From: a virus
Direction: 5' to 3' (one strand)
Length of the DNA stretch: 64,000 bases
IMG/VR virus record: IMGVR_UViG_3300010399_000003
Location: 48,853-112,852 of that record
A program made the position numbers and the translations under genes. Position 1 is the stretch's first letter; each line of letters opens with the position of its first letter. The notes under the pieces were generated by a model. That model did not search any database, was not told where the DNA came from, and was given only the letters and a program-made list of their open reading frames with translations. Shown here one piece after another: positions 18,767 through 31,711 of this stretch.

Positions 18767-21136
18767 TTAGTTCAGCCGAGCCTGCAGCGCCTTGATCCCC
18801 TCCGCATACGGATCGGGCGGATCGTAGTTCGGCGTTTCCGCCGCAGCACGCGGCACGCCACGGCCGCTGTAATCGACATCCGCCTCCGGCACGTCGAGCT
18901 TGGCCATCTTCGCGAGCTTCTCGAGTTCGTCGATCGGCTTCGCCTTGAGCTCGTCTTCGGTGAAGATGTTGGACGCCGCCGTTTTCAGCTGCGCCACCAG
19001 CGCATTCTTGTGCACCGCATCGCGCGTCTTCTGACGCTCGACCAGTGCACGCACCGACGGCGGCGCAGTCTTGAGATATTCGGCCTCCTCGTACTCGGCG
19101 ATCGTCAGGCCCGCAGCTTTCGCCGCTGCCGCTTTCTGCTCGGTCTTGATGCGCTCCTGTTCGAGCGCCTGGAACTTCGCAGCTGCGGCCTTGATTTCCG
19201 CGTTCGGTTCCTCTTCCTTCTTCGTCTTGTCCGCCGCTTCGACTGCCGCCTTGTCCGCGGCTTCCTTCTCAGCAGTCGTCTGCGAATGCGCATGCGCCGC
19301 GATGGCAGCATCCGCCGCAGCCTTCTGCTGAACGATTGCATCGGGCTTGACAAATGACAGAACCGACCCACCGCTCAGGGTGACCATCGCATCGAGCCGC
19401 TCATCCGGCACCTGCTCCAGCCACTTGGCGTCTTCCTTCGTCAACCCGACCTTCGGGTTTTCCAGGAGACTCTTGATCGTCGCCGCTCGCTCGTCCTTTG
19501 TTTTCATCTGCTCCTCCGAGCCGCCTGCAGCGGCTGTAATGGTGGGCTCTTCCGCCACAGGTTCAACCTCGACATACGTTTGTTTGACTTCGACCGGATC
19601 GCCATCGAAAACTATCTCACCATCTTCGACGATGTAAGGAACTTTCAAGAGTTGATCATCTTTCCGAATGATGACGTAATCCGGATACACGGCTTGCGCA
19701 TACGCATATCCAGCTGACGGCATCACTGTAGATTCGGGATTTCCAAACTCACGCTGCACAGCCATGTTCAGGGCTTGAATCTGCTCGTCGAGCGAGCCCG
19801 CGAGATCGTGCAGCCAAAATTCTTCGGCGTTCCTCGGTTTGTAATTCCGCCTGTTCGACTTCCGACCCTCTGAACTGCCGAACGCGAAGCCGGCAAGGCC
19901 AGCTTCGAATTCCGGAGTCCCTGGATCGAAATTCTGCATATGCTCTTCGAGGAACGATTTCATCGACTGGCCTTCACCACCCCATCGTGCCGCGTCCATA
20001 AAGACTGAACGATGTTCAGCCTTCAATTTTGCACGAGCAACCGGACTTCGTTCGTATTTGAGAATCGCTTCTTCATGGGTTGCTGGATCCTTGTATTTCT
20101 TTTCCCATGCAGCATAACGATTATCACCCTCGTAATCGATTGCACCTGGCCCTTGAATATCTCCTTGATAACGTGCGTTCATTCGATCATTCGCACGAAT
20201 ATCTGCCTGCATCTGCCGATGCAGTGAATCAGCATCACGATGTTCTTTTGCTGATAATTTACTACCGCTGCTTGCTGATCCACCCTTCTTACCAGGACGA
20301 CCAGAATGACCGTGAAATCCCGACCCGCGGCCACCGAGAATCTCAAACGGATACTCGATCGTGCCGTCTTCGAGAATTCGGCTCTTCTTTTTGCCGAGTG
20401 CAGACGTGCAGATTGCGGCTGCCGATGAGTCGTCGTGACCCTTCGCCTTGACCTTTTCCCAGCAGTCGTGCCACTTCGCGGTGTGATGGCCCTTGCCGAC
20501 GAGCGTACGAAATTCCGCATCGTCGCCAAGGTCCAATTCCTCGAATGCTTCTGCCGTCACGAGCTGCGCAAAGCGACCTGATCCGCAGCCCATGGCAATG
20601 CTGCATGCACCGCGGCCATCCGGCAAGAATGCCAGATGATCGGGCATGATTTCTTCCCATTCCGCTTTGTATGGCTTCCCAAGAAACTCGCCGGACTTGT
20701 TCAGGGTTCGCACGAACGCACCGACCGATACTTCAATCGGGTCGCCCTCGCGCAAGCGCTCCACGACATCCGGCCGACCGAGGGCCATCAATCGATCAGG
20801 GTCAACGAGCGCTTCCATGCCGAGACGAGTCTGATTAACATGCGGCTTGCGGATCACGCCGAACTGATGTTGCTCCAACACCTCCGGATCATGCGCGGAG
20901 ATCTGCCGGCCATTCTTGACTGGATGGCCAAGAACGACTGGCTGGCCTTCCCACTTGTCCGGTGCTTTCGCGAGACATGCACTCGGAACGTATTCCGGAT
21001 TATCGGCGTTCACAGCATGAATCACGCCTTCCATCAAGGCGAGCACTGGTACGACCAAGTGCTCTTTTCCATTGACGGATTCGACGCGAGCCTTGCCAGT
21101 CGCGCCAAGAAGGTGAAGACTTCGTGTTTCAGCCAT
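18767..21136 (-). CDS. Scaffold fusion protein with N-terminal domain (possible prohead protease) and one linker motif
   Basis: 789 aa. Contains GGRGSGFHGHSGRPGKKGGS, followed by a Lys/Glu/Ala coiled-coil scaffold-like region. Confidence 0.5.
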   Translation of the reverse strand: MAETRSLHLLGATGKARVESVNGKEHLVVPVLALMEGVIHAVNADNPEYVPSACLAKAPDKWEGQPVVLGHPVKNGRQISAHDPEVLEQHQFGVIRKPHVNQTRLGMEALVDPDRLMALGRPDVVERLREGDPIEVSVGAFVRTLNKSGEFLGKPYKAEWEEIMPDHLAFLPDGRGACSIAMGCGSGRFAQLVTAEAFEELDLGDDAEFRTLVGKGHHTAKWHDCWEKVKAKGHDDSSAAAICTSALGKKKSRILEDGTIEYPFEILGGRGSGFHGHSGRPGKKGGSASSGSKLSAKEHRDADSLHRQMQADIRANDRMNARYQGDIQGPGAIDYEGDNRYAAWEKKYKDPATHEEAILKYERSPVARAKLKAEHRSVFMDAARWGGEGQSMKSFLEEHMQNFDPGTPEFEAGLAGFAFGSSEGRKSNRRNYKPRNAEEFWLHDLAGSLDEQIQALNMAVQREFGNPESTVMPSAGYAYAQAVYPDYVIIRKDDQLLKVPYIVEDGEIVFDGDPVEVKQTYVEVEPVAEEPTITAAAGGSEEQMKTKDERAATIKSLLENPKVGLTKEDAKWLEQVPDERLDAMVTLSGGSVLSFVKPDAIVQQKAAADAAIAAHAHSQTTAEKEAADKAAVEAADKTKKEEEPNAEIKAAAAKFQALEQERIKTEQKAAAAKAAGLTIAEYEEAEYLKTAPPSVRALVERQKTRDAVHKNALVAQLKTAASNIFTEDELKAKPIDELEKLAKMAKLDVPEADVDYSGRGVPRAAAETPNYDPPDPYAEGIKALQARLN
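20278..20340 (-). repeat. In-frame linker motif, copy 1 (GGRGSGFHGHSGRPGKKGGS)
   Basis: Reverse complement of 20281-20340 translates to the motif. Confidence 0.8.

Positions 21137-31711: not shown

Follow-up and report, generated by a model that had tools for sequence, protein, structure and literature searches.

A conserved Gly/His-rich peptide tag at the domain junctions of phage head-module proteins: a candidate signal for encapsidation and processing

Results

The stretch of DNA analysed here (the window; 64,000 nt, positions 48,853 to 112,852 of IMG/VR virus record IMGVR_UViG_3300010399_000003) carries the head-morphogenesis module of a tailed phage, in which a 20-residue Gly/His-rich peptide, hereafter called the tag, recurs in front of otherwise unrelated protein domains. 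The tag is under selection as a peptide, stands before cargo domains, is predicted to be disordered, keeps the company of head genes, among them one whose product is predicted to have the fold of a prohead protease, and can be replaced by alternative tags on orthologous cargo. With a probability of about one half, we propose that the tag is an encapsidation and processing signal recognised in trans, most likely a cleavage cassette used during head maturation.

Exactly eight in-frame copies of the pattern GG-x-GSG-xx-GH-x-GR-(P/F)(G/H)-xx-GGS, all on the minus strand, were found by a six-frame regular-expression scan, and the same scan found no further copies elsewhere in the 64 kb. Three lie in a portal fusion protein, one in a 398-amino-acid (aa) protein, three in a 701-aa protein and one in a protease-scaffold fusion. 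A degenerate DNA pattern of the invariant residues gave eight matches versus 0.00 expected from 100 dinucleotide shuffles. A profile hidden Markov model (HMM) scored the eight copies at 36-45 bits and the next six-frame segment at 4.6 bits, and an independent repeat finder returned the same eight-copy family at 60-76% nucleotide identity. The scan, the shuffles, the profile HMM and the repeat finder all bear out a first-pass annotation of the window, which had counted eight in-frame copies in four head-module genes. It had also called these genes adjacent; the genes are the right ones, but strict adjacency does not hold, as the gene for a MuF-zincin protein and a 346-aa open reading frame (ORF) lie between the 701-aa gene and the 789-aa protease-scaffold gene.

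Twelve tag positions (G,G,G,S,G,G,H,G,R,G,G,S) are invariant in the window. Mean identity among the copies is 73% for amino acids versus 62% for nucleotides (nucleotide range 49-79%), and both TCN and AGY codons are used for Ser and both CGN and AGA for Arg. Since amino-acid identity exceeds nucleotide identity and the Ser and Arg codons are mixed, it is the peptide that is under selection, and the copies did not arise by recent DNA duplication, as expected for the selected peptide module at domain junctions of head-module polyproteins that had been proposed earlier. An element acting at the RNA or DNA level was considered and rejected, because synonymous positions are near random and nucleotide identity is as low as the range above indicates.

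All eight copies open with L/M-(A)-G-G behind a helical or hydrophobic stretch, several contain HHGH or FHGH, and an L/I-x-E triplet lies upstream of the tag in 2/8. AlphaFold models were examined for the N-terminus of the 789-aa protein and for a 368-aa form of the 398-aa protein, the tag being present in 20/69 rows of the alignment behind the latter. In both models the tag is predicted to be disordered, with a predicted local distance difference test score (pLDDT) below 50 and no secondary structure; its pLDDT is 33-42 and it makes no contacts, while the adjoining domains are confidently predicted. Such predicted disorder speaks for a tag recognised in trans rather than for a folded or autocatalytic element, and the autoprocessing element suggested in the first-pass annotation is thus unlikely. 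The tag is not collagen-like or of the polyglycine-II type, having only five triplets (GNF GHA GRP GEV GGS) and no predicted structure. It is not an AT-hook either: the consensus H-A-G-R-P-G-E-V has one Arg, with Glu usually next, and the R-G-R-P core is absent.

Tags lie at the boundaries of protein domains

Pfam and PHROG domains fall between the tag copies, which stand, as had been noted before, at boundaries between recognisable units. All positions below are on the minus strand of the window unless marked otherwise. The portal fusion (27449-31711; assigned by Pfam, PHROG and PDB matches) is 1420 aa long, also by an independent gene call. Its portal domain (Pfam Phage_portal_3, PHROG 146 portal; aa 48-461, nt 30329-31570) is followed by a Pro/Ala-rich tether and the first tag, GGKGSGNYGHGGRPGKVGGS (29798-29857, aa 619-638). 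Domain A (aa ~642-793), which has no family, separates this copy from the second, GGKGSGDHGHAGRPGQIGGS (29273-29332, aa 794-813). Between the second and third copies a family-less region is followed by a 2H phosphoesterase (Pfam 2_5_RNA_ligase2; aa 997-1084, nt 28460-28723). The third copy, GGKGSGNFGHSGRFHHVGGS (28262-28321, aa 1131-1150), is the most divergent of the eight, with GRFHH in place of GRPGx, and directly precedes a C-terminal topoisomerase IB (TopIB; Pfam Top1B_N_bact and Topoisom_I; aa ~1152-1418, nt 27458-28258). The solved TopIB in PDB entry 2f4q aligned from its own residue 20, and this match opens right after the last residue of the third tag.

The 701-aa protein (24126-26231; Pfam, NCBIfam and PDB matches; 700 aa by the same independent caller) starts with a DCoH/pterin-4a-dehydratase-like domain (Pfam Pterin_4a, 5.4e-11; PDB DCoH-type 1uso; aa 18-100, nt 25932-26180). 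A leader-like helix, VARYLLALRLAGG, leads into the first tag, GGKGSGHHGHKGRPGKVGGS (25731-25790, aa 148-167), after which come a family-less domain and the second tag, GGRGSGHHGHAGRPGKRGGS (25098-25157, aa 359-378). A weakly matching Tpt1/KptA-like region (NCBIfam RNA 2'-phosphotransferase, 0.0053; aa 381-465) lies between the second tag and the third, GGAGSGFHGHAGRPGKVGGS (24642-24701, aa 511-530), and a likewise weak ADP-ribosyltransferase-like region (Pfam ADPrib_exo_Tox, 0.004; aa 606-687, nt 24171-24416) stands near the C-terminus. A DCoH/pterin-4a-carbinolamine-dehydratase-like domain is an unusual cargo or carrier in a polyvalent protein of a head module. The Pterin_4a label was also found on P0308, a homologue of the ParB-like family described next.

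The 398-aa protein (26228-27424; PHROG 2859) consists of a Cys-rich helical leader with two CPxC..W motifs, the tag GGAGSGHSGHGGRPGHVGGS (27152-27211, aa 72-91), an Ala/Pro/Gly spacer and a conserved cargo domain with DGHHRW (aa 249-363, nt 26336-26680). Its true start is likely an internal ATG at nt 27334, which gives 368 aa and excludes 27335-27424; this start is used by the independent gene caller and by database entry P0297. The cargo domain was modelled with pLDDT >90, and a fold search with the model returned no significant PDB match and only a weak hit to ParB, so that the ParB/sulfiredoxin-like assignment remains a weak label. The motif QTCPxCQxWI starts both the 701-aa and the 398-aa protein (26179-26207 and 27294-27322; 83% nucleotide identity over 29 nt), and a second Cys copy, STCPECLMWV, directly precedes the tag of the latter. 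The Cys motif of the two proteins may be a zinc-knuckle-like leader.

The eighth copy, GGRGSGFHGHSGRPGKKGGS (20276-20335, aa 268-287), lies in the 789-aa protease-scaffold fusion (18767-21136; Pfam DUF2213, PHROG 760). It follows a gp21-like prohead protease domain, DUF2213 (PF09979; aa 15-180, nt 20597-21094; assigned by AlphaFold, Foldseek and Pfam), and a confidently predicted helical His/Cys mini-domain, HHTAKWHDCWEKVKAKGHDDSSAAAICTSALG (aa 207-247, nt 20396-20518). Behind the tag are a family-less region (aa ~290-447) and an Ala/Lys/Glu-rich, scaffold-like C-terminus that is conserved in relatives (aa ~480-789).

The tag is widespread in viruses

A profile built from the eight copies was compared with 1.84 billion protein-cluster representatives and matched 4,469 proteins at E<=1e-3, 773 at <=1e-10 and 106 at <=1e-30, with up to 10 tag copies per protein. 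Since a single copy scores near the significance limit, 4,469 is a lower bound. A 44-residue motif profile run against an index of 5.8 billion proteins returned only fragments of 44-74 residues and was uninformative. With a strict DNA pattern, at least 118 IMG/VR stretches were found to carry the tag, with up to 9 copies per locus; the same pattern occurred in only 43 stretches of species genomes (185,579 species, one genome each, 596 Gb). Nearly all of these 43 are contigs of metagenome-assembled genomes (MAGs), mostly of Clostridia/Lachnospiraceae, with some Proteobacteria and a few archaeal bins. The tag is thus widespread and virus-specific, and by no means special to the locus in which it was first seen.

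In the wider phage set the tag reads [K/D/R]-GGPGSGNFGHAGRPGEVGGS and leads into a Gly/Ser/Ala/Pro spacer. GG is mostly preceded by K, D or R and not by a hydrophobic residue, position 14 is usually Glu, and the His-containing part reads N-F-G-H with only one invariant His, which argues against the metal-binding HGH considered in the first-pass annotation. No curated family covered the tag in Pfam, PHROGs and NCBIfam scans of tag-bearing proteins, and no PDB chain matched the 20-residue motif at E<0.6. Domain-based queries found no cultured phage with the tag. A tblastn search of 50,697 cultured-phage records with the consensus peptide gave no match either, but the low-complexity filter probably accounts for this, and the result does not speak for absence. 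The earlier impression that no such system had been described was upheld, in that no description of the tag was found in Pfam-A, NCBIfam, PHROGs, PDB or 8 million full texts, a corpus outside which subscription-only literature lies.

Tag copies are present on contigs binned with archaeal MAGs of Methanomicrobiales, Bathyarchaeia, Methanotrichaceae and Methanomassiliicoccales (GTDB contigs L135, L142, L130 and L147). The portal and DUF2213 proteins of the window have haloarchaeal virus homologues too (Hardycor1). Tailed viruses of archaea may therefore share the tag system.

The tag labels the N-terminus of cargo units

The anatomy of tagged proteins was determined for the 150 best-scoring ones. 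Median lengths are 202 aa between tags (minimum 56), 40 aa ahead of the first tag and 280 aa behind the last. In 86/150 proteins the tag stands at the N-terminus behind a leader of fewer than 60 residues. The tag typically follows either a carrier domain or such a short leader (~8-60 residues), and at least 6-8 residues always precede it. Many leaders are amphipathic helices of the form ...ARLLxAxxRxxLGG, and VARYLLALRLAGG of the 701-aa protein is the same helix in an internal position. Given the short leaders, the tag is best described as an N-terminal label of each cargo unit; the first-pass annotation, which had called it a linker, was right in that copies lie between domains and too narrow in that they are not confined to such sites. 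The asymmetry of short leader and long tail fits a propeptide or cleavage cassette.

ADP-ribosyltransferases were the commonest cargo (~20) in a Pfam census of 148 post-tag segments. Zeta-toxin kinases, TopIB, GNAT, NUDIX, PBECR3, CdiA_C, DUF4258 and an anthrax-LF-like zincin were also found, and ~70% of the post-tag segments sampled had no Pfam match. Judged by these domain matches, post-tag segments appear to be typical injected-effector or toxin domains.

Profiles seeded from the window were used to describe the neighbourhood of 161 tagged loci, of which 62 had MuF, 52 a Phage_portal_3 portal and 34 DUF2213. Portal genes were fused to a tag and cargo in 30/54 cases, and wherever a tagged gene was found in one locus with a portal or MuF gene, the two point in the same direction (127/127 tagged genes). 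Typically the portal comes first, then MuF, one to several tagged genes, DUF2213/scaffold and capsid. DUF2213 was present in 17/31 MuF loci with at least 4 kb of downstream sequence; in many loci without a visible DUF2213 the sequence ends inside the cargo genes. A strict link between the tag and the DUF2213 protease was rejected, the protease being frequent and not exclusive, and no difference at the V/I/R position of the tag was seen between loci with and without DUF2213. In L005, a tagged zincin protein is preceded, two genes upstream, by a C39-type peptidase (double-glycine leader family; 1-897), the sole such case among 74 neighbouring proteins.

Tags of one genome share a dialect. Identity at the variable positions is 0.68 within genomes versus 0.49 between genomes, and third-codon-position identity is low in both comparisons (0.36 within versus 0.27 between); for the window itself the dialect signal is modest (0.41 versus 0.37). 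Dialects combined with low third-position identity suggest co-adaptation to a common partner rather than gene conversion.

DUF2213 is predicted to be a prohead protease

The first-pass annotation had named the N-terminus of the 789-aa protein as a candidate prohead protease, and structure prediction strengthened this assignment. Residues 20-170 were modelled with pLDDT >90 from a 48-sequence alignment, and Foldseek placed three chains of T4 gp21 (5jbl) at the top with E-values of 1e-5 to 2e-5, a probability of 1.00 and target-normalised TM-scores of 0.61-0.63. Apart from T4 gp21 the DUF2213 domain had no significant fold match in the PDB; the protease of human cytomegalovirus gave a weak, partial one. 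H71, S137 and D166-H167 are invariant in the 48 homologues, in the order and spacing expected for an assemblin-type enzyme as judged by sequence alignment. On the predicted structure, the DUF2213 domain has the T4 gp21 prohead-protease fold, and assignment of the widespread, 'uncharacterised' DUF2213 family as a prohead protease is supported by this modelled fold.

A GACSxxMGCGxxR extension is strictly conserved after the DUF2213 domain, and many homologues have a DnaJ-type CxxCxGxG zinc finger inserted between protease and scaffold. Some carry the precomputed Pfam label PF27659. Compared with L120, the 789-aa protein of the window has an extra block between protease and scaffold, made up of the helical mini-domain, the tag and ~160 residues, which from this comparison looks like an inserted tagged cassette. 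A pattern related to the His/Cys mini-domain occurs in 14/120 DUF2213 homologues, and the mini-domain is also the N-terminal leader of P0058, an unrelated tagged protein of 1693 aa.

Alternative tags and cassette shuffling

Orthologous cargo carries interchangeable alternative tags. The Gly/His tag is present in 23/120 homologues of the cargo domain of the 398-aa protein; different short motifs occupy the same site, 7-48 residues before the conserved domain, in other homologues. These are [F/W]-x-E-x-x-HPR-xxx-G-x-F and its degenerate forms, such as FNPxQPRDxxGRW, a Cys variant, EFNxCHxPxDGxFCS, and, in a few proteins, KAW(D/E)SR-type leaders. The same leader helix precedes either tag type in different proteins (P0066 versus P0073).

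The 494-aa MuF-zincin protein of the window (22663-24147; Pfam Phage_Mu_F and PHROG head-morphogenesis families) lacks the Gly/His (type-1) tag. Between its MuF domain (aa 165-274, nt 23326-23655) and the HEIGH motif of its zincin (aa 418-422, nt 22882-22896), at the MuF/zincin junction, is the sequence YDPSQERDEFGKW (aa 288-300, nt 23248-23286), which resembles the FNPSQPRDKEGQW-type tags of cargo homologues and belongs, in degenerate form, to a second family of tags, [F/W/Y]-x-E/P-x-x-(H/Q)-P-R-xxx-G-x-(F/W). With a degenerate second-type tag at its junction, the zincin also looks like tagged cargo. The fusion of a HEIGH zincin to MuF, reported in the first-pass annotation, is present in the window; the general processing role it had been offered for is a different matter, since zincin homologues occur in 11/163 tagged loci and 11/12 homologous proteins bear the Gly/His tag themselves. 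Rare in tagged loci and itself tagged, the zincin is cargo-like and a poor candidate for a general processing enzyme.

In relatives the same cassettes are found on other carriers. L165, whose portal is 64% identical to that of the window, has an unfused portal, and its TopIB follows a variant tag, GGPGSGNFDHEGRPGEVGGA, on MuF. The portal of L120 is joined to the 2H domain and domain A in a different order, with a decayed linker, GSGGKNSGK, and relatives also have shortened copies such as LGGPGSGPQGG. Decayed or truncated tags at junctions that are intact in the window map to 13197-17093 and 17100-18600 of L165 and to 4947-7550 of L120. Such decay means that regular-expression counts underestimate the occurrence of the tag.

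Head module of the window

A metagenomic contig of 112,870 nt (ENA ERZ27256670 k141_6328653), present in several samples, corresponds to the window. The head-morphogenesis module is transcribed on the minus strand in the order TerL, portal fusion, 398-aa protein, 701-aa protein, MuF-zincin, 346-aa ORF, protease-scaffold, decoration protein and capsid. The large terminase gene, upstream of the portal fusion (34573-36183), is 50% identical to the gene in the TerL position of L165, and its counterparts in relatives have Pfam terminase matches. The 346-aa ORF (21622-22662) has no tag and no family match in Pfam, PHROG and NCBIfam. The decoration protein gene (18286-18726; PHROG 766 head decoration) lies directly downstream of the protease-scaffold gene, and the major capsid protein is encoded at 17208-18251 (PHROG 771 and 264 capsid); both proteins are 59-70% identical to those of relatives with the same gene order. 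Outside the module, a tRNA-Val (CAC) gene lies at 46012-46086 on the plus strand, and near 41-42 kb a switch of both GC skew and coding strand marks the border between the structural module (minus) and a plus-strand module.

Discussion

The tag can be understood as an exposed short linear label of protein modules bound for the head interior. Each unit would consist of an anchor, the tag, a short Gly/Ser/Ala spacer and a cargo domain, where the anchor may be a carrier built into the procapsid (portal, MuF, protease-scaffold or a preceding cargo domain) or a short helical leader. A conserved component of the assembling head would read the tag in trans; the likeliest reader is the maturation protease, here presumably the gp21-like DUF2213 domain. 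Once the procapsid is closed, a cut at or beside the tag would free the enzymes (ADP-ribosyltransferase, Tpt1-like, 2H phosphoesterase, topoisomerase IB, ParB-like and others) to exit with the DNA. Three considerations favour a cleavage cassette. Cargo fused to the portal would stay bound unless cut, and so needs release in order to leave the head with DNA. A loading signal is needless on domains that are already fused to portal, MuF or scaffold, which favours a signal read after entry. Finally, a pure targeting signal needs no repeats within one polyprotein, and a pure linker would not be found behind short leaders. Placing the scissile bond at V-G-G↓S, by analogy with the (V/L/I)-X-A↓S sites of assemblin-fold proteases, would be an unsupported guess.

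Several observations weigh against processing by the maturation protease. Encapsidation of the cargo, cleavage of the tag, the identity of the cleaving enzyme and the position of the scissile bond are all points that we infer. Among the 120 closest DUF2213 homologues only 3 carry the tag, and in Brevundimonas phages StAshley and MaInes, the closest cultured relatives, the portal and the DUF2213-scaffold protein are present while tags and cargo genes are both missing. Some tagged loci have PF04860 portals, HK97 or Mu gpT capsids, or XkdF-type S78_2 proteases, so the tag spans more than one head lineage. In the AlphaFold model of the 789-aa N-terminus, the cis tag is not docked into the protease. 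With 12/20 residues invariant, the tag far exceeds what known prohead-protease sites need, which fits docking no less well than a scissile site. Degenerate tags still join the same domains in relatives, and a single junction can thus do without an intact tag.

Docking is the substance of one alternative, in which the tag is a cargo-loading peptide that is not cleaved and that binds the procapsid interior (capsid protein, scaffold, MuF or portal), tethering the cargo there. Its 12 invariant residues are typical of a binding motif, its disorder and its flexible Gly/Ser spacer are reminiscent of encapsulin loading peptides, its dialects are genome-specific, MuF is its commonest neighbour (62 of the 161 loci), and a stand-alone cargo protein with a short leader needs a route into the head. 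We nevertheless regard docking as rather unlikely. Domains fused to portal, MuF or scaffold need no loading signal, yet carry one tag each; the leader of at least 6-8 residues that always precedes the tag would not be required by a pure docking peptide; cargo fused to the portal and left unreleased could not exit with DNA; and the tag occurs with several unrelated capsid and portal families. It is also improbable, and more clearly so, that the tag is simply a flexible spacer without a specific partner, its coding sequence serving as a recombination junction for cargo shuffling. In relatives the junctions at which cargo is shuffled between carriers do bear the tag, its sequence is Gly-rich and predicted to be disordered, and copies decay while the fusion persists, all of which such a spacer would explain. 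However, a nucleotide identity of 49-79% with near-random synonymous sites is ill suited to homologous recombination, a spacer would not keep its H, R, P and two S residues invariant in thousands of proteins, and a linker is needless behind the short N-terminal leaders where the tag is also found.

Binding of nucleic acid, through an AT-hook-like GRP core or a Gly/His/Arg loop, could in principle tether cargo to the genome for co-ejection or serve a role in the host after injection. The tag does contain G-R-P-G, Arg, His, Gly and aromatic residues abound in the alternative tags as well, and there is a weak, non-significant likeness (E=2.6) to the rRNA-contacting GGGNHQHIGKPS loop of ribosomal protein uL2. 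This is very improbable, as an R-G-R-P core with flanking basic residues is missing, position 14 is usually Glu and no nucleic-acid-binding family was matched significantly. Moreover, proteins enter the procapsid before DNA during tailed-phage assembly, and DNA binding cannot therefore explain loading. We give equally little credence to a tag that processes itself, is cut by the MuF-fused zincin or acts as a metal-binding HGH tether, although the module does contain a MuF-HEIGH zincin fusion, Iyer et al. 2017 (PMC5512222) proposed that zincins process polyvalent proteins, and several window copies read HHGH or FHGH. The small share of tagged loci with a zincin, and the tags borne by nearly all of its homologues, speak against the enzyme. 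For self-processing, 20 residues predicted to be unstructured and the lack of any conserved pattern of known autoproteolytic residues (Asn at position 5, for example, varies) are obstacles, and the single invariant His within a general consensus of NFGH is one for metal binding.

Parts of this picture are familiar. Polyvalent proteins are multi-domain effectors of phages and conjugative elements, each joining two to fifteen unrelated effector-type domains, that were proposed to be packaged, injected and proteolytically processed, and their catalogue lists globular domains (MuF, ART, ParB-like, 2H, zincin, GNAT) in changing combinations (Iyer et al. 2017, PMC5512222). The window proteins resemble them in joining portal, 2H and TopIB, or DCoH, Tpt1-like and ART-like domains, in single polypeptides, tagged proteins elsewhere have ART-PolyVal, ParB_N, GNAT and intein domains, and tagged genes likewise lie in the head module, linked to MuF or portal. 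A junction tag, N-terminal labelling and alternative tags are not described in that study. The MuF polymorphic toxins of temperate phages have variable C-terminal toxin domains behind an N-terminal MuF carrier, and neither a junction motif nor cleavage is mentioned in their description (Jamet et al. 2017, PMC5576092). MuF is similarly the commonest neighbour or carrier of tagged domains, but most tagged proteins are not MuF fusions, and portal and protease-scaffold proteins also act as carriers. Multi-domain effectors in phage head modules, presumably packaged and processed, were thus known already, and the apparent novelty lies in a conserved tag with a modular grammar and interchangeable alternatives.

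Short signals on packaged proteins have precedents of several kinds. The internal proteins IPI-III and Alt of T4, the latter a packaged and injected ADP-ribosyltransferase, have an N-terminal capsid-targeting sequence that is removed by gp21. Like it, the tag is N-terminal on non-structural head proteins in 86 of the 150 cases, a gp21-fold protease is predicted in the module and ADP-ribosyltransferases are the commonest cargo. The T4 signal is ~10 residues long, poorly conserved, ends in L/I-x-E and occurs once per protein, whereas tags of the window type have 20 near-invariant residues and reach 10 per polypeptide, and no conserved L/I-x-E was found beside the tag in the window copies or the cross-phage consensus. 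In phiKZ-like heads many internal proteins, multi-domain ones too, are cut by a gp21-like protease at S/A/G-x-E. Cutting at a recurring motif during maturation, as our model would have it, is alike, but the phiKZ-like site has three residues and no relation to modules of portal, MuF and DUF2213. Encapsulin cargo-loading peptides, which load enzymes into an HK97-fold shell, are short, Gly-rich and next to a flexible linker; they are usually C-terminal, of the GSL type, not repeated between domains and not cleaved, in contrast to the tag, which is N-terminal to its cargo and has another consensus. Cleavage at Gly-Gly is known from the adenovirus protease, (M/I/L)XGG↓X, and from double-glycine leaders cut by C39 peptidases. 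The L/M-(A)-G-G opening of the window copies and the C39-like peptidase of one tagged locus recall these sites, but K, D or R mostly precede GG across phages and C39 was found in just 1/74 neighbours.

We propose, tentatively and as a possibility short of even odds, that the Gly/His/Arg-Pro tag and the HPR...GKF, CH...FC and KAW(D/E)SR-type tags form a portable address-and-release code read by a conserved component of the head. Phages inject proteins along with DNA, and the nature of this cargo and the route by which it is selected are mostly obscure. The tag provides a sequence handle for listing candidate injected effectors in metagenomes, among them ADP-ribosyltransferases, Zeta-toxin kinases, 2H/Acb1-like phosphoesterases, topoisomerase IB and many family-less domains, and a defined, mutable element for studying how cargo enters the procapsid and is released. 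It could explain how cassettes move among portal, MuF and scaffold without functional loss, and could serve for loading foreign proteins into phage capsids. If the address-and-release code holds true, every domain behind such a tag would be an effector delivered by the virion, and a single short profile would suffice to uncover which proteins thousands of uncultivated phages inject.

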